Virus genome (UHGV): UHGV-0153204
Length of the DNA: 16,283 nt
Strand: one strand, 5' to 3'
Source of the DNA: a virus
Shown here: one piece after another, positions 4,959 to 12,203 of the stretch
Layout: each line of letters begins with the position of its first letter
How positions within the stretch are numbered: the stretch's first letter is position 1
Translations under genes and position numbers: made by a program
The notes under the pieces: model-generated
The model's input: the letters and a program-made list of their open reading frames with translations, nothing else
Database searches by the model: none
What the model was told of the DNA's origin: nothing

Positions 4959-5756
4959 TCAATGAACGGTATCGAGTAGCTTTAACAGCTCAGGGAATCG
5001 GGATTCGAAGAAATGCGGCTGCGTCTCGCGCGGATTTGCGGGACTGGTGATGTTCTTGCCGAACATGCAGCCTTTCGCCGTCAGCGACCAGAATTTTTTG
5101 ATGTTGTTAATCGCGGTACGGCTGTATCGTTCGCGCTGCTCGACGATCCCCAGCTTCACCATCTGGTGATATGCCTGATTAGCTGTCAGGCGGATACCAT
5201 ACTGCTTCAGCAGTGCACTCAGTGACAGCGTGGGGCGGCTTGAGCCATCAGGCGCGTCAGCAGGAGCATCAATGGCATAGCGCGGTGCCAGATTCGGTAA
5301 GCCAACAGCCTCCTGGAGTTTCTGACAGGCTCCAAGCACTGAAGAGTTAGACAGATTTAACTCCCGGCGCATAAAGTCCAGCAGAATCACGCCAGCCTGC
5401 ATCTTGTCAGCAGCCTGTCCGGATAATTTTTCAGGTGCGCTGGTTACCATGTCGAAAGTACGGATCACCTTCAGATGGAATGACGGGCTGATCCACATTG
5501 CATAGGCATACACCAGTTCTTTGCAGACATACGTCCCCTGGTTATTTCCGCCACGAATAACGTTAACTGGCTCTATATTGACCGAGTTGCAAATCTGCAA
5601 CTCGCTTATTAAACGTTCAGTTTGCTCATTGCGGAGCCAGAATGCAGGCTTATGCTTATCCAGAGAACCGGCAGCCCTGTGCAGATCGTTCAGGCTGTAA
5701 CGACCATAAGCATCACGACGAACTTCAATACCATCAATGACCATCAGATTATTCAT
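4959..5756 (-). CDS. KilA-N domain protein (putative antirepressor-like)
   Basis: 265 aa; N-terminal MVIDGIEVRRDAYGRYSLNDLHRAAG...KHKPAFWLRNEQTERLI is a typical KilA-N signature as I recognise it. C-terminal half uncharacterised. Confidence 0.65.
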   Translation of the reverse strand: MNNLMVIDGIEVRRDAYGRYSLNDLHRAAGSLDKHKPAFWLRNEQTERLISELQICNSVNIEPVNVIRGGNNQGTYVCKELVYAYAMWISPSFHLKVIRTFDMVTSAPEKLSGQAADKMQAGVILLDFMRRELNLSNSSVLGACQKLQEAVGLPNLAPRYAIDAPADAPDGSSRPTLSLSALLKQYGIRLTANQAYHQMVKLGIVEQRERYSRTAINNIKKFWSLTAKGCMFGKNITSPANPRETQPHFFESRFPELLKLLDTVH

Positions 5757-5775
5757 ACTTCGTTTCTCCTCTTAA

Positions 5776-6165
5776 TCAGGCGGCTGCACCCGCCGGTTTC
5801 TCGTACTTACTGATAGTGATCTCGACCTTCCCTTCCGGGATAACCGGTCCCCACTCCACCAGCATTCTTTTCACCTGACTGTCGTCTTCCCACACACCCG
5901 CGTGGGTCAGGGCGTCAAACAGCGCCTTGTTATAGTTGTCCAGATCGCGGATCCGGTTATCCGGAGGAAACAACACGATCTCCACTGAAGCTGGTGCCGA
6001 CGTTGGTTTCGGCAGACGGCGTAACTGCTCAATGATGGCGGCACACGCCGCGCCCTGGAATTTACGCCCCGCCGCGCTTATCAGGCTCTTACCTGCAAAA
6101 GCCCCTTTGTTGGGGTGTCGCCAGTACGTGTTCACGCTGGGGGGAAACGGCAGGATCAGCTTCAT
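5776..6165 (-). CDS. rusA: Holliday junction resolvase RusA
   Basis: 129 aa; pattern LPFPPSVNTYWRH...DLDNYNKALFDALTHAGVWEDDSQV matches the RusA family (compare E. coli RusA LPWPPSNNRYYRH...[25 protein letters not shown]). Canonical nin-region position upstream of Q. Confidence 0.85.
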   Translation of the reverse strand: MKLILPFPPSVNTYWRHPNKGAFAGKSLISAAGRKFQGAACAAIIEQLRRLPKPTSAPASVEIVLFPPDNRIRDLDNYNKALFDALTHAGVWEDDSQVKRMLVEWGPVIPEGKVEITISKYEKPAGAAA

Positions 6166-6488
6166 ACTTTCAGGCCCCTCTCATGTAACCAGTGGGCTGC
6201 ACGCAGCCTGCCGTTTTCCTCACCGGCAAGCAGTGCGCGGATAATCCCGACCGCCTCGCTGTCGTCGTCCTTCACCGCGGTATGAAGAGTTATCCCCCGG
6301 GCCACGCCACGCTTTATCGTGATGACGCCTTTTTTCTCCAGTGCGCGAAGATGCTCCACCGCTGCATTCACCGAACGGTATCCCAGCATGGTTGCCACCT
6401 CCTGATTGGTTGGCGGAAAGCCACGTTCTTGCTGGTAAGAAATCAGCATATCCAGCACCTGCTGCTGGCATTGAGTTAACGTCGTCAT
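6162..6488 (-). CDS. LexA N-terminal DNA-binding-domain-only protein (no S24 peptidase domain)
   Basis: 108 aa; LTQCQQQVLDMLISYQQERGFPPTNQEVATMLGYRSVNAAVEHLRALEKKGVITIKRGVARGITL aligns by eye to the LexA winged-helix domain ([55 protein letters not shown]). Ends without a cleavage-site or peptidase region. Confidence 0.7.
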   Translation of the reverse strand: MTTLTQCQQQVLDMLISYQQERGFPPTNQEVATMLGYRSVNAAVEHLRALEKKGVITIKRGVARGITLHTAVKDDDSEAVGIIRALLAGEENGRLRAAHWLHERGLKV

Positions 6489-7138
6489 GCCGCCATCTCC
6501 CTGACCAGTTTTTCCGCCTGCTGGCGAACCTGCGCCAGAAAGGCCTCACCACATGCCTCAAGTTCATCGCGCCCGATGTAGCTGATTGCCGATCCCTTCC
6601 AGGTCTTGTCGAAAACAGCAATGGCACCAGCGAAGAAAGCACCTGTCGGCACCTGCTTCTCGTCCTTCGGTATAAACCAGGCAGGTAGTTCAAAACCAAT
6701 ACGCCCGCGAATAAAAGCAATATGATCTGCATCTTCCGGCCACCACACTTCGCTGGTAGCTGCTTTGATCAAGAAAACATAGCGCCCGCCTTTATCACGC
6801 ATGGCACTGGCATGCTTCATGATGTAACGCATGCCGGTGATGTATTGCCCCTCATGCTGACTGGCGCGGCTGTATGGGGGATTACCAAAGGCAGCACCTT
6901 TAAGCTCCGCAAGACGTTCTGACCAGTCATGCGCCAGCGCGTTGTCTTCCGCCGTGTAATACGCGGCACATTTGGCGTTATCACCGTCAGTGAACAGATC
7001 CAGAACAAACGGGCCAAACAGGGTGTTAATTCCCCAGAAAATGTTGTCCGGCGTGCGCCACTGATCGCCCACTTCCTTCAGTTCATGGGCTGGTTTGTTC
7101 CGCAGTTCCACCAGCGCCTGCCAATATTTATTACTCAT
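6485..7138 (-). CDS. Phage N6-adenine DNA methyltransferase (Dam-type, NPPY motif)
   Basis: FGNPPYS motif (NPPY-type amino-methyltransferase motif IV) and overall resemblance to phage Dam-family proteins. The six-frame ORF starts at 7171; the Met at 7138 (MSNKYWQ...) overlaps the upstream stop by 1 nt and is the more likely start. Confidence 0.7.
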   Translation of the reverse strand: MSNKYWQALVELRNKPAHELKEVGDQWRTPDNIFWGINTLFGPFVLDLFTDGDNAKCAAYYTAEDNALAHDWSERLAELKGAAFGNPPYSRASQHEGQYITGMRYIMKHASAMRDKGGRYVFLIKAATSEVWWPEDADHIAFIRGRIGFELPAWFIPKDEKQVPTGAFFAGAIAVFDKTWKGSAISYIGRDELEACGEAFLAQVRQQAEKLVREMAA

Positions 7139-7632
7139 TAAGCCCCCACGTAATTCCCTGACAGATACCACTCATCACCCGATACAGCGCACTTGCTGCT
7201 TTTCCGTAAGCACCGCTCACGGCGCGCCAGAAAATTGTTTCGTTCTGGCTGGGAGTGGCTTTCACGGAATGCCGCCATCCACACGGTTGCAGCACGACGG
7301 TATAAGCCCCTGGACTCCAGTTCTTCAGCCTGGCGGGTCAGGCACAAAATTACCCGTGGATCGTTAGTGCCGACATAGAAATTGCGCACAGGTCTGGTTT
7401 CACGAACTGGTTGTGGTTCCGGCTCCTGCGCTCTCTCAGTCAGGCGCGGGAAATGTCTGCGTGTATCTCCTTCACAACGGTGATCCACACGCCCACTCTG
7501 ACGTAACTTGCTTGCTGACTGCAGAACGCGCTGCCGTGAGTAACCTGCAAAAGCATCCGCAATGTCTCCGGAAGTACACCCCGGATGGGCTTCAATGAAT
7601 TTCTGAACGTCATTTAACAGACTCATGATCAC
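7138..7632 (-). CDS. Hypothetical prophage protein, possibly PerC-like regulator
   Basis: 164 aa ORF, translationally coupled on both sides (ATGA overlap with the upstream gene). The segment LESRGLYRRAATVWMAAF is reminiscent of PerC-family proteins, but this is weak recall, not a confirmed match. Confidence 0.5.
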   Translation of the reverse strand: MIMSLLNDVQKFIEAHPGCTSGDIADAFAGYSRQRVLQSASKLRQSGRVDHRCEGDTRRHFPRLTERAQEPEPQPVRETRPVRNFYVGTNDPRVILCLTRQAEELESRGLYRRAATVWMAAFRESHSQPERNNFLARRERCLRKSSKCAVSGDEWYLSGNYVGA

Positions 7633-8540
7633 CCCCTGAATCCTGCCGGGATCTGGCTGTAGTCCACATTGTCGTAACTGGATTTGAAGTACGGGTCTTC
7701 GCGTTTTTCGGTGTACGTGCTTACGGACGGCGATAAGCGCAGGGAAAGCTCATCCCATTTTTCCCGCAGCTTCGACGGGCTGAGCACGTTACGGCACCAG
7801 AACGGAGCGCGGCTGACGCGGCTGTACATCTCGCAGATTTGTTTGTGAGTACGACCATCCTGCACACACATCAGGCGAATTTCGTTTGCCCAGGCTGTCC
7901 AGTTCGGTTCTTTGGGACGAACCACCTCGCCGTCACATTCGGCAGCCTGCTCGTACAGGGCGATGATTTTTTTCCAGAGCCACTGTGCGCAGGTCAAATC
8001 ATCCTGCGTCCCCCACTGGCGCTTTTTAGGGCTGAATACAACCGCATCAGGATGGCGAGTTAAAAAATCCTGTTCAGCCGTCTGCGTGTCCGGTTGCGAA
8101 GCGTCCGGACGAGAAGGTTTTTTATCTGACGGATCATGTTTTGATTTTACTGACGGATCCCCGCCAGATTCTGACGGGTGAAAACCCGCTTTTTTGCCAG
8201 ATTTCGACGCATCAAATTTTGACGGGTCAGAATCTGACAGTTGAGAAAATGCCGCTGCCTGAAGCTTCGCAACGTTAAGCTGATAAACATTCGACGCATT
8301 GCGGTTACCCTGGCGACGCGCCTTACGCGTTAACCAGCCTTCTGCTTCCAGCCGTGCGATAGCCGTTCTGACGGTACTCATCCCCGCGCCAATCTGACGG
8401 GCAATGGTTTCAATTGATGGCCAGCACACACCTTCGTCATTACTGAAATCAGCCAGGCGGGCCATAATTGCCACGCTGGATAACTTCATGCCTGATGCAG
8501 CGCAACCATCCCATACATAGCCGGTTAATTTAGTGCTCAT
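7629..8540 (-). CDS. Putative replication initiation protein (O-like, N-terminal winged HTH)
   Basis: 303 aa; N-terminal LSSVAIMARLADFSNDEGVCWPSIETIARQIGAGMSTVRTAIARLEAEGWL is a typical wHTH of phage replication initiators. A Ser/Pro/Lys/Asp-rich linker is followed by a conserved-looking C-terminal domain. Lies in the early-right operon below cro. Confidence 0.55.
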   Translation of the reverse strand: MSTKLTGYVWDGCAASGMKLSSVAIMARLADFSNDEGVCWPSIETIARQIGAGMSTVRTAIARLEAEGWLTRKARRQGNRNASNVYQLNVAKLQAAAFSQLSDSDPSKFDASKSGKKAGFHPSESGGDPSVKSKHDPSDKKPSRPDASQPDTQTAEQDFLTRHPDAVVFSPKKRQWGTQDDLTCAQWLWKKIIALYEQAAECDGEVVRPKEPNWTAWANEIRLMCVQDGRTHKQICEMYSRVSRAPFWCRNVLSPSKLREKWDELSLRLSPSVSTYTEKREDPYFKSSYDNVDYSQIPAGFRG

Positions 8541-8549
8541 GACCGACCT

Positions 8550-8888
8550 CTATTTCCCTGAATTTACGACGAAACTGTTCGAGCGGACTGAAGCATTCAT
8601 GCTCATAACCTTCGCGGAGGTAGATAACCCGTTGTGTTTCCGGCTCCCAACGAATGACTCTGACGGGCACTCCGTAGTGATCTTTGAACCAGCGGTTAAC
8701 TTGTCGCAAAGGACTGTCTCCTTCTGCCGGTTGAAATCACCCACAGCCCACTCTGCAAAGCTGTGGGTTACAATTTCCCTGTCACCTGGTACATTCACTG
8801 CATAGCAATATTCCACCTTCGCTTTTCCACCCGGTACAGGAAGCGCAATCAGTTGCGAGCGACGGTAGTGTGTTGTTAAACTGTTCAT
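8550..8888 (-). CDS. Hypothetical early protein with apparent frame disruption (possible pseudogene or overlapping genes)
   Basis: The N-terminal ~55 codons of the called ORF look protein-like. Downstream the called frame becomes Ser/Thr-rich and atypical, while an alternative minus-strand frame over roughly 8528..8730 encodes ...[62 protein letters not shown] and ends overlapping the O-like start. Confidence 0.35.
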
Positions 8889-9442
8889 GCGTTAGTTTCT
8901 CCACAACCAGAAGCAATCGACGCCACGACGCCCGGAGCTGCACACTCGCGGGCGTCATTACTTTCTGAAATGCAAAAAATTTTGTAGACAAGTGCTGCAT
9001 GCTCCTGCAGCTTCGAAATTGAGAGATACAGCTCGTCGTTAATTGCTGTCTTCTCATGCGGTTCCACCACACCGTCTTCGATTGCCGAACGAATCTGTTT
9101 GGAATAACTGCCAATCTGTTCAATGACTTCCAGCAGGCGCTGGTTAATATCGGCGTTATCCACATCCTCGACGTCAGGAAGAGACACAAAGACGCCATTT
9201 GCAGACTGCGCCACAGCGTCAGCAATGAAGTGAGTGCCACCAGCACGTTGTAAAATCATCGCCCATCCCAGCGGGAAAATTTGATCGCCATCGGCACGAA
9301 GGCGGTTAAATAATGCGTTCTCTGTTACATCCAGCCAGTCAGCTGCTTCAGCGTAACCCCCCGGCAACGCTGCGATAGTTTTTCTGACAGCTTTCACGTA
9401 CCACTTAGGCTGTTTTTCTACTTTCCAGTGATGCTTACCCAC
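8885..9442 (-). CDS. CII-like / YdaT-family regulator
   Basis: Likely GTG start at 9442 preceded by AGGAG (9453..9449); the longer six-frame ORF would overlap cro by 83 bp. Contains an HTH-like [18 protein letters not shown]. Position immediately after cro corresponds to cII/YdaT in lambdoid and Rac-type prophages. Confidence 0.5.
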
Positions 9443-9464
9443 GGCTATCTCCTTAAAACTGTGG

Positions 9465-9713
9465 TTACTTTTCATCTGATGAATCTTTAATCTTTTGAAA
9501 AATATCTGGACGTAATTTTTCTTTTGATATGCCAGTGGTCTTTTCAATGAATATCGAGAGCTTTGCAGGGGGACGCTTTTCTCTGTTCAACCAGTTCCAG
9601 ACATGTTGTTGCTTTACTAAATGACCGCTGCTGGCTGTGAGCTTCCGAGCCAATTCTGATTGACCACCAGCCAGAGCGATTGCCTCCGATAAGGCTAATT
9701 GCTCAGGTGTCAT
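9465..9713 (-). CDS. Cro / YdaS-like HTH transcriptional regulator
   Basis: 82 aa; HTH GGQSELARKLTASSGHLVKQQHVWNWLN. Divergently transcribed from the CI-like repressor across a repeat-rich operator region. Strong SD (AAAGGAGA) upstream. Confidence 0.75.
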   Translation of the reverse strand: MTPEQLALSEAIALAGGQSELARKLTASSGHLVKQQHVWNWLNREKRPPAKLSIFIEKTTGISKEKLRPDIFQKIKDSSDEK

Positions 9714-9848
9714 AGCTTTCTCCTTTTTTGGTAGTTAAGTTGTTACGAGTTGCAAGAATACAACATTAACAACTTTTATCACAACTTTTAGGTGTTGGAA
9801 AGCTAAAACATAAAGTTGTAACCTCATCAAAAAAGAGAGGGATATGTT
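9714..9848. promoter_or_regulatory. Divergent operator/promoter region between cro-like and cI-like genes (OR-like)
   Basis: Repeated inverted motifs: AAGTTGTTAC (9737..9746), TAACAACTT (9768..9776), ACAACTTTTA (9781..9790), TAAAGTTGTAAC (9811..9822). Sits between divergent regulator genes. Confidence 0.6.
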
Positions 9849-10535
9849 GTGAAAACACTGGCAGAACGATTAAAGATAGGTAGAGAGAAAGCTGGCATGA
9901 GCCAAGCTCAACTAGCTGAAAAAATTGGACTTTCACAACAATCTGTAGCCAAAATAGAGAATGGCGAAACTCTACAACCGCGCAAAATTAAAGAAATTGC
10001 AAAAGTTTTAGGTGTATCACAAAAGTGGTTACAACTTGGTATTGAAGACAACGCATCCATACCTGATCTTGTTGTAAAAGAAGCAGAAAGCACCGCATTA
10101 GACCCCGATATTTTCGTAAACATTCCTGTTTTAGATGTCGAGTTATCGGCAGGTAACGGATGTCTGGCTGAAATAGTTGAATCAGCTATTGACTGGTTTC
10201 CGTTAAGAAGAGCAGATTTGAGAAAATCTGGCGTATGTGCATCTAATGCCAAGATCGTAAAAATATGGGGGAACAGTTTATTACCGGTTCTCAATAATGG
10301 AGATCTTGTTGCCGTTGATATTTCTCAAACCGTTCCTATTCGTGATGGCGATCTTTATGCCGTACGAGATGGTGTATTGCTAAGGGTTAAAATACTTATC
10401 AACTTACCTGACGGTGGCTTGATTCTTAGAAGCTTCAACAAAGATGAGTACCCAGATGAAATACTTACCTTTGAAGATAGACGAGCCAGAATTCATGTTA
10501 TAGGTAGGGTATTCTGGTCATCGCGAACTTGGTAA
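9849..10535 (+). CDS. cI: CI-like prophage repressor (N-terminal XRE HTH + C-terminal S24 LexA-like peptidase domain)
   Basis: GTG start at 9849. HTH GMSQAQLAEKIGLSQQSVAKIENGE; C-terminal region with GNSLLP (Ser) and LRVKIL (Lys) typical of S24 autocleaving repressors. Confidence 0.85.
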   Translation: MKTLAERLKIGREKAGMSQAQLAEKIGLSQQSVAKIENGETLQPRKIKEIAKVLGVSQKWLQLGIEDNASIPDLVVKEAESTALDPDIFVNIPVLDVELSAGNGCLAEIVESAIDWFPLRRADLRKSGVCASNAKIVKIWGNSLLPVLNNGDLVAVDISQTVPIRDGDLYAVRDGVLLRVKILINLPDGGLILRSFNKDEYPDEILTFEDRRARIHVIGRVFWSSRTW

Positions 10536-11408
10536 TGCATCGAAAAGCATTTCTTCAGAAATAATTTTAAGTTTTGCACCATTATCATCTCTATAAGATA
10601 TAGCCTTTTCGATCTTCCTTCCGTGACTAGAGAATTTCCAATCACGGGAGGAAAGCGTCCCAATTACTAAAAAATCCAACTGTTGAGTAATTCCACTACT
10701 GATGTTCCCACCAGCATTTTTAATCAAATTTTCAACTACGGCTCTCTTTCCTGCAACAAAAGTGCCTGTAAGACAATAGGTTTTACCCTCTAACTCTATC
10801 GAAGCCTCTACATCAATAGGCAGCCTGGTCGCCAAACCATCCACCACCCCACTTTCCAAGTCACATCCTGTGAAGTCTACTAATGCCTTATGTAGAGTTA
10901 AACTCTCATCTTCAGTAATAACACCATCTTTAAGAATTTCCTTTACAAGTGCATAAAGTTTTTTTCCTGGGTAGTTGTTCTTCAAAGCTCCATTTTGCTC
11001 AAGCCACCAATTAAGATATCTTATTTCTTCTTGAGTTAAGTTCCGATCAGCAATTAATCCTTTACATAGTCCATTAAGTAAATGGACATCTACATCCTTG
11101 GAGTAAAAATCAATTTCAGGGATATCAAGAATTTCCCTCTGTATTTGGAGAAGGCTATTTTTAAGGTCATCACGTTCTTCTGATGTGATTATTCCATCCG
11201 CAAGAATATCCGACACCCGTGCAGATAGACTTTTTATAACTCCATTATTGATAATCTGCTTTGCTTCAAGTAACCATGTATCTAAGTAAAGAACCTCCTC
11301 TTCACGGACAACTCCATCTGCAATGATTCCATCAATGATGCTAATCAAGTTAGCAAATAACTTGTCCCGGTTCTGTGTGTAATTAAAAGCGTAAAGCGCG
11401 TCTTCCAT
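10518..11408 (-). CDS. Hypothetical protein: four tandem ~36-aa repeats plus C-terminal BRCT-like domain (immunity-region accessory gene)
   Basis: Likely start ATG at 11408 with perfect SD (AAAGGAGGttgtATG); the ORF track begins at 11438. Repeats share a hydrophobic-ADG-hydrophobic-(I/V)(T/R)xEE...L core (IIADGVVREEEV, ILADGIITSEER, LIADRNLTQEEI, ILKDGVITEDES). C-terminus GKTYCLTGTF...DFLVIGT...KLKIISEEMLFDAL resembles the LigA-type BRCT domain. AT-rich, convergent with cI. Confidence 0.7.
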   Translation of the reverse strand: MEDALYAFNYTQNRDKLFANLISIIDGIIADGVVREEEVLYLDTWLLEAKQIINNGVIKSLSARVSDILADGIITSEERDDLKNSLLQIQREILDIPEIDFYSKDVDVHLLNGLCKGLIADRNLTQEEIRYLNWWLEQNGALKNNYPGKKLYALVKEILKDGVITEDESLTLHKALVDFTGCDLESGVVDGLATRLPIDVEASIELEGKTYCLTGTFVAGKRAVVENLIKNAGGNISSGITQQLDFLVIGTLSSRDWKFSSHGRKIEKAISYRDDNGAKLKIISEEMLFDALPSSR

Positions 11409-11439
11409 ACAACCTCCTTTTTTTGATAATCCTTGCACT

Positions 11440-11530
11440 CCTTGGCCACTCGTTCAAACCACATAAAGTTGTTGACAACATTCAAAACCACAACTAAATT
11501 ACAACTTAAAGGTGTTAAAACAACGAACAG
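11440..11530. promoter_or_regulatory. Second operator-like region (OL-like) with consensus-like plus-strand promoter
   Basis: Shares ACATAAAGTTGT and ACAACTT(T/A)(T/A)AGGTGTT blocks with the cro/cI intergenic region. TTGACA (11472..11477), 17-bp spacer, TAAATT (11495..11500) on the plus strand. Also upstream of the minus-strand BRCT gene. Confidence 0.45.
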
Positions 11531-11613
11531 GCAGGACGCCCACGAAGTAGCCCGCCTGGTACGTACGAAGACCGGGATGATTCGTTAGCGGATGATTTCA
11601 GTGGAGAGAATAG

Positions 11614-11922
11614 ATGAATGAGCAGAATTTGAAGCATGTGATCGCATTGTTGCTGGAAGACGCTAAACGTTTGCAGCAGATAGAGCCAAATGCAGGCACT
11701 GAGGCCCGTATTTTGTTAGCAAAACAGGCATTAAAGACTTGCGGGGCGCAAGACCCTGATCGAACCAAGTTCATGAATTTCATGGCTAACACGATCACCC
11801 CCCTGCCATGCAATGGAGAGAGGGTGAGCCGTGTTTATCACGACACAATGGTTAAGGCATTAAGAATCGAGCTTGATGGGCTTAGGCGTAAGATCGTGAT
11901 GAACAAAATCGTTGCCAACTAA
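11614..11922 (+). CDS. Hypothetical early-left protein
   Basis: 102 aa ORF with SD GGAGAG 5 nt upstream; helical-looking composition. First gene downstream of the OL-like promoter. No recognisable family; not similar to lambda N by eye. Confidence 0.45.
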   Translation: MNEQNLKHVIALLLEDAKRLQQIEPNAGTEARILLAKQALKTCGAQDPDRTKFMNFMANTITPLPCNGERVSRVYHDTMVKALRIELDGLRRKIVMNKIVAN

Positions 11923-12203
11923 GGAAGCAGACGGAAGTAAGCATGCGCTTTGTTCAAATTTGCAGACAAATATATTTGCGTCAACACCAGCACTGTTAGC
12001 AATGGAAAAAGTTTGATCAAGGATTTGTTGGCAGTTCATTGTGCTTTTGAGGATATATCCCTCTGGAATCAGTCTGCAGCAGCTATCGTCAGACTCTTTG
12101 ATTGTTTTCTGGTACAGAAAGTTAAGCATTAATTCTTCAAATTTTTTGGTCTGTTCGGCTGTTGCTTCAAACAGACGAACGTGAACATAAAACTGGTTCA
12201 TTA
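11860..12203 (-). CDS. Hypothetical protein (minus strand, overlaps 3' end of preceding plus-strand ORF)
   Basis: Best start ATG at 12203 with SD AAGGAAACC. N-terminal MNQFYVHVRLFEATAEQTKKFEELMLNFLYQK looks protein-like. 63-bp convergent overlap with 11614..11922 means at least one of the two may be mis-called. Confidence 0.4.

Follow-up and report, generated by a model that had tools for sequence, protein, structure and literature searches.

We have analyzed a stretch of viral DNA from UHGV virus genome UHGV-0153204 (16,283 nt, hereafter the window), in which a complete gene of the DUF4222 family evidently lies nested, out of frame, within the 3' half of ymfM. The segment at 8530..8888 on the minus strand is part of the early-right operon of an e14-like lambdoid prophage. 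YmfM (frame A) consists of a conserved N-terminal domain and a tail that is free of constraint as protein and is nevertheless kept free of stop codons throughout the overlap with DUF4222 (frame B). The reading that we favour, and consider probable though well short of certain, is that of a nested out-of-frame gene pair in which read-through of the tail is kept so that ribosomes can be relayed into the replication gene downstream. The features of the locus are as follows.

8885..9442, minus strand: ymfL, 185 aa (PGAP), a CII/CP76-family regulator (Pfam Phage_CP76, E 2.2e-13)
8888..8885, minus strand: ymfL/ymfM junction, ATGA, in which the TGA stop of ymfL overlaps the ATG of ymfM
8550..8888, minus strand: ymfM ORF, frame A, 112 aa (ATG 8888..8886, TAG 8552..8550)
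8694..8888, minus strand: N-terminal domain of YmfM (residues 1-65), which is conserved and folded
8553..8693, minus strand: YmfM tail, residues 66-112, which reads the +1 frame of DUF4222
8718..8724, minus strand: Shine-Dalgarno sequence GAAGGAG for DUF4222, 8 nt upstream of the TTG
8530..8709, minus strand: DUF4222 gene, frame B, 59 aa (TTG 8709..8707, TAA 8532..8530)
8538..8552, minus strand: ymfM/O-like junction, with TAG, a 9-nt spacer with GAGG, and an ATG in the ymfM frame
7629..8540, minus strand: O-like replication initiator (HTH_36), 303 aa (ORF call and Pfam)

Frame B is offset from frame A by -1 (equivalent to +2) and is open only from 8736. LCDKLT, the last six or so residues of the YmfM N-terminal domain, overlaps the first codons of DUF4222. 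The junction at the other end of ymfM reads TAG-aggtcggtc-ATG (8552..8538); the GAGG Shine-Dalgarno sequence of the O-like gene is made up of the G of the TAG and the first three bases of the spacer (8550..8547). The TAA of DUF4222 falls 8 nt past the O-like ATG (8540), i.e. inside the O-like gene. An earlier, sequence-only reading of this DNA had noticed the 112-aa ORF with its Ser/Thr-rich second half and, over the same DNA, a second minus-strand frame ending in an overlap with the O-like start. Both descriptions hold: Ser and Thr make up 11% of the first 56 residues of YmfM and 29% of the last 56, and the two genes overlap as described. That reading was also right that there is no homopolymer at the apparent switch point, the letters at 8720..8735 being ttcaaccggcagaagg. 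Rfam, promoter and terminator scans of the region found no RNA element and no internal promoter.

Three explanations had been proposed for the two frames: a sequencing indel, a frameshift pseudogene, or two genuinely overlapping small genes. The indel is contradicted by comparison with known DNA. A 601-nt stretch matches the finished genome of E. coli 504239 at 100% identity and K-12 MG1655 at 99.8%; in the latter strain it belongs to ymfL-ymfM of the e14 prophage. The number of complete E. coli genomes that have it at 80% coverage or more is 1900, and other genera share the layout. All that speaks for an indel is the remark, in the sequence-only reading, about other quality problems of the assembly. 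An indel introduced in sequencing or assembly is ruled out by this finished-genome identity and by the same layout in other genera, and its probability is negligible. The DNA shared by the window and E. coli 504239 is limited to 7586..9443, and the prophage is therefore a mosaic.

Database records differ in which of the two frames they report. On the identical DNA, PGAP calls only the 59-aa DUF4222 protein (WP_001250269.1, identical to the product of frame B) and not the 112-aa frame; the record of phage SfIV has the 112-aa frame only, under the name SfIVp40. PHROGs contains both products in separate families, phrog_1170 for full-length YmfM and phrog_1343 for DUF4222, as well as a 63-aa profile of the YmfM N-terminus (phrog_20047). 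YmfM of the window aligns with phrog_1170 over residues 1-112 of 112 (E 7.6e-70); database homologues are 96-98% identical, and forms of 112-117 aa are found down to 46% identity. The 112-aa annotations (EcoCyc for K-12 and many phage records) and the 59-aa annotations (PGAP) are both correct, and neither record shows the overlap.

The second frame had been judged to encode a well-composed C-terminal sequence; it matches the full Pfam model of DUF4222 (PF13973; E 8.6e-19, 67.3 bits against a cut-off of 27), with residues 2-53 aligned to model positions 3-52 of 53. Stand-alone relatives (n=139) occur in many enterobacterial genera and range from about 43 to 86 aa, most of them being about 59-70 aa long. 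A Shine-Dalgarno-like motif at -8 to -17, followed by ATG, GTG or TTG, is found in nearly all DUF4222 clusters; in the window and its closest relatives the start is TTG, a weak codon. Within the overlap, nucleotide diversity at DUF4222 codon positions 1, 2 and 3 is 0.16, 0.12 and 0.47, a pattern that marks frame B as coding. The pN/pS of DUF4222 is about 0.23 (uncorrected Nei-Gojobori, comparable pairs). AlphaFold2 gives a confident SH3/Tudor-like barrel (pLDDT 80.5). By all these indications DUF4222 is under purifying selection and is genuine coding sequence. There is also a second, deeper clade in which DUF4222 is about 45-55% identical to that of the window, often starts with GTG, and is read through in frame A in the same way. 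The ATG of the replication gene keeps a constant offset from DUF4222, regardless of which type of replication protein is encoded there. The literature searched describes neither a function for DUF4222 nor its position abutting replication initiators.

The N-terminal domain of YmfM is constrained as well, with a pN/pS of about 0.32 compared to 0.15 for the O-like gene (uncorrected Nei-Gojobori). An HMM of the domain finds matches in 31 clusters across genera, and stand-alone genes for it exist in Yersinia phage YeP1 (53 aa) and in an Entomohabitans prophage (78 aa). The ATGA junction with ymfL and an MNSLT or MTSLT start are kept in all the loci compared. Residues C61 and T65 are nearly invariant and are retained in the Entomohabitans prophage, which is missing most of DUF4222; the N-terminal domain therefore reaches about six codons into the overlap. 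This extent agrees with the finding that Asn5 of DUF4222 is invariably encoded by AAC. It is only in these first six or so overlapped codons (frame A residues 60-65) that dual constraint is apparent. The N-terminal domain, too, is evidently under purifying selection and genuine coding sequence.

These findings bear on the view that DUF4222 alone is real, the 112-aa ymfM being a spurious ORF and the 175 nt upstream of DUF4222 non-coding. The PGAP calls of DUF4222 only in E. coli genomes fit such a view, as does the fact that YmfM matches no Pfam family and that the AlphaFold2 model of YmfM, in which the N-terminal domain shows a beta-beta-beta-alpha-alpha pattern (pLDDT 57-75), is of low confidence and without a fold match. 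However, the view accounts neither for the pN/pS of the N-terminal domain nor for the maintenance of the ymfL junction and of the MNSLT start in all loci, nor for homologues across genera that include stand-alone genes. It also does not explain why the avoidance of stops in frame A, described below, is confined to loci that have the N-terminal domain. We regard a spurious ymfM as very improbable.

The proposal of a frameshift pseudogene can be considered together with that of a programmed -1 frameshift, since both suppose a single N-domain-DUF4222 protein, decayed in the one case and still produced in the other. The -1 offset between the frames agrees with this, and rare single-frame fusions of the YmfM N-terminus to DUF4222 with a PF13973 match do exist (P0031, P0053, P0060 and P0065). 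These fusions are found on one contig each and their junctions differ, so they are sporadic mutants or assembly errors rather than the ancestral form. Going upstream from its start, the DUF4222 frame closes after 0-39 codons, and after just 0-1 codons in two loci (L017 and L038). DUF4222 has its own Shine-Dalgarno sequence and start codon, with which its relatives stand alone, and the 112-117-aa frame is open wherever the N-terminal domain is present. Dozens of diverged loci (more than 40 lineages) have kept both frames intact. No slippery heptamer of the form X XXY YYZ was found at the junction in the 31 cluster representatives, and only a sporadic AAATTTA at +144 occurs in a few of them. A programmed frameshift is unlikely because a conserved slippery site is lacking, DUF4222 has start signals of its own, and its frame is closed upstream in some loci; a frameshift pseudogene is ruled out by the finished-genome identity together with the conservation of both frames. 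Taken as a pair, a decayed ancestral fusion and a programmed frameshift are very improbable. Of the three explanations proposed from the sequence, it is the two genuinely overlapping small genes that is upheld, by the DUF4222 family match and by the retention of both frames in dozens of diverged loci. The sequence-only reading had treated the frames as competing, so that homologues with the 112-aa protein as a single conserved frame would speak against the other peptide. The 112-aa frame is indeed conserved in homologues, but the DUF4222 frame is conserved too, and the frames are not alternatives.

The behaviour of frame A across DUF4222 was examined in loci from three sources: 37 from one-genome-per-species contigs, 80 from viral contigs, collected with a more divergent DUF4222 alignment, and several from phages and metagenomes. 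DUF4222 cores were grouped into clusters at 88% nucleotide identity. The chance that frame A would be open was estimated by resampling the synonymous codons of each DUF4222 with the codon usage of the loci themselves. In 35 of 35 unique genome sequences frame A traverses DUF4222 and ends at the same DUF4222 codon pair, and none of them has an open third frame. All 31 clusters with an upstream N-terminal domain have an open frame A, where the simulated chance was 0.02-0.20 for each and 0.07 on average. Of the 10 clusters without an upstream N-terminal domain, 5 have it open, where about 0.13 per lineage would be expected; the Fisher test on the two groups gives p = 3e-4. Clusters are kin by descent and recombination, and the Fisher tests and probability products accordingly overstate significance, while the direction is unambiguous. 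Given the 5 of 10, part of the openness may be inherited or compositional. The two-frame pattern is far beyond chance.

Codon choice points to how frame A is kept open. At Val and Leu codons before an A, none of 87 in DUF4222 ends in a purine, compared to 201 of 306 in the flanking genes of the same loci; at "safe" sites within DUF4222 itself, 33 of 66 codons are purine-ending. Phylogenetic independence does not apply to these counts either, so p-values derived from them give an upper bound on significance. The openness of frame A is thus due to a context-specific choice of codons in DUF4222 that avoids stops. This signal of stop avoidance is present only where the N-terminal domain is present.

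In the tail no corresponding constraint on amino acids is seen. The synonymous divergence of frame B in the overlap (pS 0.56) is not reduced relative to the O-like gene (0.58), and frame A codon position 2, which coincides with the synonymous sites of frame B, therefore evolves freely. Amino acid constraint on both proteins across the overlap was accordingly dropped as an explanation, frame B synonymous divergence not being below that of flanking genes. Mean amino acid identity is 48% for the tail compared to 79% for frame B. The tail is Ser/Thr-rich and predicted to be disordered (AlphaFold2 pLDDT 32-38), and its length is nearly constant at 47-52 residues. Its "poor composition" had been remarked on in the sequence-only reading; the description is correct, the composition being poor because the tail is overprinted on a strongly constrained DUF4222 gene. 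These comparisons show a tail whose sequence is unconstrained as protein and whose openness and end-point are constrained.

The position of the end-point is equally regular. The frame A stop keeps close to the next ATG, at -8..+12 nt in all 30 clusters, compared to 1 to 89 nt past that ATG for the frame B stop. In the e14 clade the stop is built from rare DUF4222 codons, ATA, TTA or CTA, plus the next base (35/35), and it lies 12 nt before the ATG of the replication gene (the stop and a 9-nt spacer with a Shine-Dalgarno sequence), in the same frame. For the second clade, it is DUF4222 that ends as ATGA on the ATG of the replication gene, and the frame A stop follows 5-8 nt later. Among the N-domain loci compared, none had a frame A stop in the middle of DUF4222.

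Natural variants depart from this layout in several ways. In YeP1 the TGA of the 53-aa N-domain gene overlaps the ATG of DUF4222 (ATGA), and locus L103 has the same ATGA onto the DUF4222 start with a longer N-like protein. The Entomohabitans prophage has an internal deletion of DUF4222 and a YmfM of 78 aa. Since YeP1, L103 and the Entomohabitans deletion variant all lack the tail, it is not strictly required. In Serratia-type phages a KilA-N gene precedes DUF4222 and frame A is closed. In another locus (L079) DUF4222 is cut short by a premature stop and frame A is intact. In mEp460 and SfV frame A is without the usual stop and continues in frame into the Rha antirepressor, the whole being annotated as a single 383-aa protein.

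It might be argued that the tail is a functional, composition-defined disordered region of YmfM, such as a linker, a degron or an interaction segment, and that the frame is open for the sake of the protein. The open tail frame in 31 of 31 clusters and its nearly constant length agree with this, high sequence turnover is tolerable in disordered regions, and a clone of the ymfM ORF causes filamentation. On the other hand, the synonymous sites of frame B evolve as fast as those of neighbouring genes, the composition of the tail is set by DUF4222, and the N-terminal domain occurs without the tail (in YeP1, in the 63-aa phrog_20047 profile and in Entomohabitans). A function of the tail also leaves unexplained why the stop is positioned at the ATG of the next gene. 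We consider a tail maintained for its own function possible, although on the whole unlikely.

The end of frame A falls on the DUF4222 start or at the start of the replication gene and never between, and for this reason a ribosome relay is the best explanation. In the relay that we propose, ymfM would be translationally coupled to ymfL through the ATGA, and DUF4222 would be translated independently from GAAGGAG-N8-TTG inside ymfM. Ribosomes coming from the ymfM start would have to avoid release in the middle of DUF4222, and hence the tail would stay open; they would then be passed to the start of the replication gene by termination-reinitiation. In the serial layout found in some phages, ribosomes would instead be handed to the DUF4222 start via ATGA. 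DUF4222 would be the older gene and the tail an overprinted extension. Coupling is probably operating at these junctions, as the geometry of the stops and starts suggests. The O-like gene is preceded by a GAGG Shine-Dalgarno sequence of its own, and translation of DUF4222 alone could serve the same purpose. The early-right genes of e14 are repressed during normal growth. If the relay is correct, the ymfM tail would be a non-coding-like "ribosome conduit" whose openness serves translational relay only, an unusual form of selection behind a long ORF.

The nested layout has consequences for the phenotype assigned to ymfM. The ymfM gene of e14 (b1148) was recently identified as the long-sought sfiC of E. 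coli K-12, whose product is an SOS-inducible inhibitor of cell division (Ansari et al., bioRxiv 10.1101/2020.11.19.390815). Expression of the K-12 ymfM ORF from pBAD24 abolished Z rings and led to filamentation, and deletion of ymfM reduced SOS filamentation (Ansari et al., bioRxiv 10.1101/2020.11.19.390815); induction of the ymfM transcript during the SOS response has been reported, and earlier library fragments contained the whole of ymfM with parts of neighbour genes. The pBAD24 clone also carries the Shine-Dalgarno sequence and start of DUF4222 and its codons 1-53 of 59, i.e. the whole folded core, and the ymfM deletion removes DUF4222 as well. The bioRxiv text of Ansari et al. describes no truncation or frame-specific control. 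Since every construct (ORF clone, library fragments and deletion) includes or removes DUF4222, filamentation is not attributable to one product. It is conceivable, if rather less than likely, that the SfiC phenotype is due wholly or partly to the nested DUF4222, or to the 65-residue N-terminal domain alone. If so, either DUF4222 gains its first function or the real inhibitor is about half its assumed size. Our guess, which is a matter of opinion, is that the fast-evolving N-terminal domain is the likelier inhibitor and that DUF4222 is tied to the replication module it adjoins.

In comparison with what has been described before, the ORF of the window is the same gene as e14 ymfM and has the same neighbours, ymfL upstream and the O-like gene downstream. 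It differs from the published account in that the literature has a single 112-aa gene, whereas here the 3' half is found to hold a complete, conserved DUF4222 gene. Frame B is in turn a full-length member of the family represented by PF13973, WP_001250269.1 and phrog_1343, and its nesting in ymfM is new relative to the papers searched: the literature retrieved for DUF4222, ymfM and sfiC, in which Ansari et al. was covered in its bioRxiv version, does not mention the overlap.

Nested out-of-frame genes are well known in phages, examples being lambda Rz/Rz1, A/B/K of phiX174, and E within D in the same phage. In Rz/Rz1 both overlapping products are functional and act together. The pair described here resembles Rz/Rz1 in that a small gene, with a start of its own, is contained wholly or largely in another gene, in another frame, and in that the layout is kept across lambdoid phages. 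It differs in that the overlapped part of ymfM is without amino acid constraint, only its openness and the position of its stop being conserved: both frames are intact beyond chance, while purifying selection on both products was not found across the overlap. Phage operons are likewise known to couple genes by termination and reinitiation where these meet as ATGA or as stop-N(x)-ATG, and the junctions here are of these kinds, namely ATGA between ymfL and ymfM, TAG-N9-ATG between ymfM and the O-like gene, and ATGA between DUF4222 and the O-like gene in the second clade. Compared to the usual coupling, the proposed relay would need some 50 codons to be read in the alternative frame of another gene. 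An alternative frame that is stop-free in this way, without amino acid constraint, would be missed by methods that look for overlapping genes through a reduced synonymous rate. On the comparative evidence, the arrangement of ymfM and DUF4222 is a new and well-supported example of nested overlapping genes with an unusual selective signature.

The only segment of the window that matches the thrW-linked prophage of E. coli strain 504239 is 7586..9443 (98-99%), while the remainder matches other E. coli prophages, with FHI_NMBU_10 at 97% over 5000..12000. The immunity/replication module is thus a cassette of mosaic origin. In the window the O-like ORF has 303 aa, versus 313 aa in 504239 and S88. 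The start of ymfL, the CII/CP76-family regulator gene, differs between calls:

Window 8885..9547, minus strand: mechanically called ymfL ORF, 220 aa from TTG

The PGAP ymfL in identical DNA is 185 aa (558 nt), with a start equivalent to window 9442; the additional 35 codons of the longer ORF overlap an 82-aa Cro/YdaS-like ORF (9465..9713).

The junction with the replication gene was compared among the genome loci L004-L038.

Positions +169/172/175 from the DUF4222 start, L004-L038; 8540 in the window: ATGAGC start of the replication gene

The offset from DUF4222 to this ATGAGC is constant across these loci, and the sequence downstream of it encodes at least five unrelated types of replication-protein N-terminus (GCAASGMKL.., INPDLAYSIG.., SGQRNCITIP.., IAYNPSFAK.. 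and CDIQPISRK..). The fixed offset together with the unrelated N-termini suggests that the boundary is a conserved module junction or a recombination joint.

Several DUF4222 lineages have no recognisable ymfM N-domain upstream.

L089-L100, L104, L109, L117, L123 and L084-L088, viral contigs: DUF4222 lineages of this kind

The +1 frame is stop-free across DUF4222 in five of the ten clusters (88% nucleotide identity) that lack the N-domain, where about 0.13 would be expected per cluster. This openness could be inherited, could be owed to another ORF upstream in the +1 frame that was not recognised, or could stem from composition.

Damaged variants of DUF4222 were also seen. In one viral contig (L079:1501-1533) it is cut by a premature stop after MQELDRQYKDP, and the overlapping ymfM frame (114 aa) is still intact; in L127 the start codon is lost, Ala standing in place of Met/Val.

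L042:2501-2737, Entomohabitans teleogrylli prophage locus: internal deletion in DUF4222

This deletion took most of DUF4222, of which only a C-terminal remnant, FRERFKRVDR-stop, survives in another frame. The YmfM of this locus is 78 aa, retains the LC..LT motif and terminates 11 nt within the replication gene.

A longer protein is annotated in phage mEp460, in a layout also found in SfV (orf37) and in the cdtI and Stx2c phages.

L045:1352-2503, phage mEp460 gp41: annotated 383-aa 'transcriptional regulator/antirepressor'

Its ymfM-like N-terminus is followed by passage, in the +1 frame, through an intact DUF4222 (63% identical, GTG start), then by about 100 junk-like codons and an in-frame Rha domain, for which a separate Met is present (MATIPTL...). 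Probably the 383-aa gene call is extended too far; the alternative is a genuine fusion.
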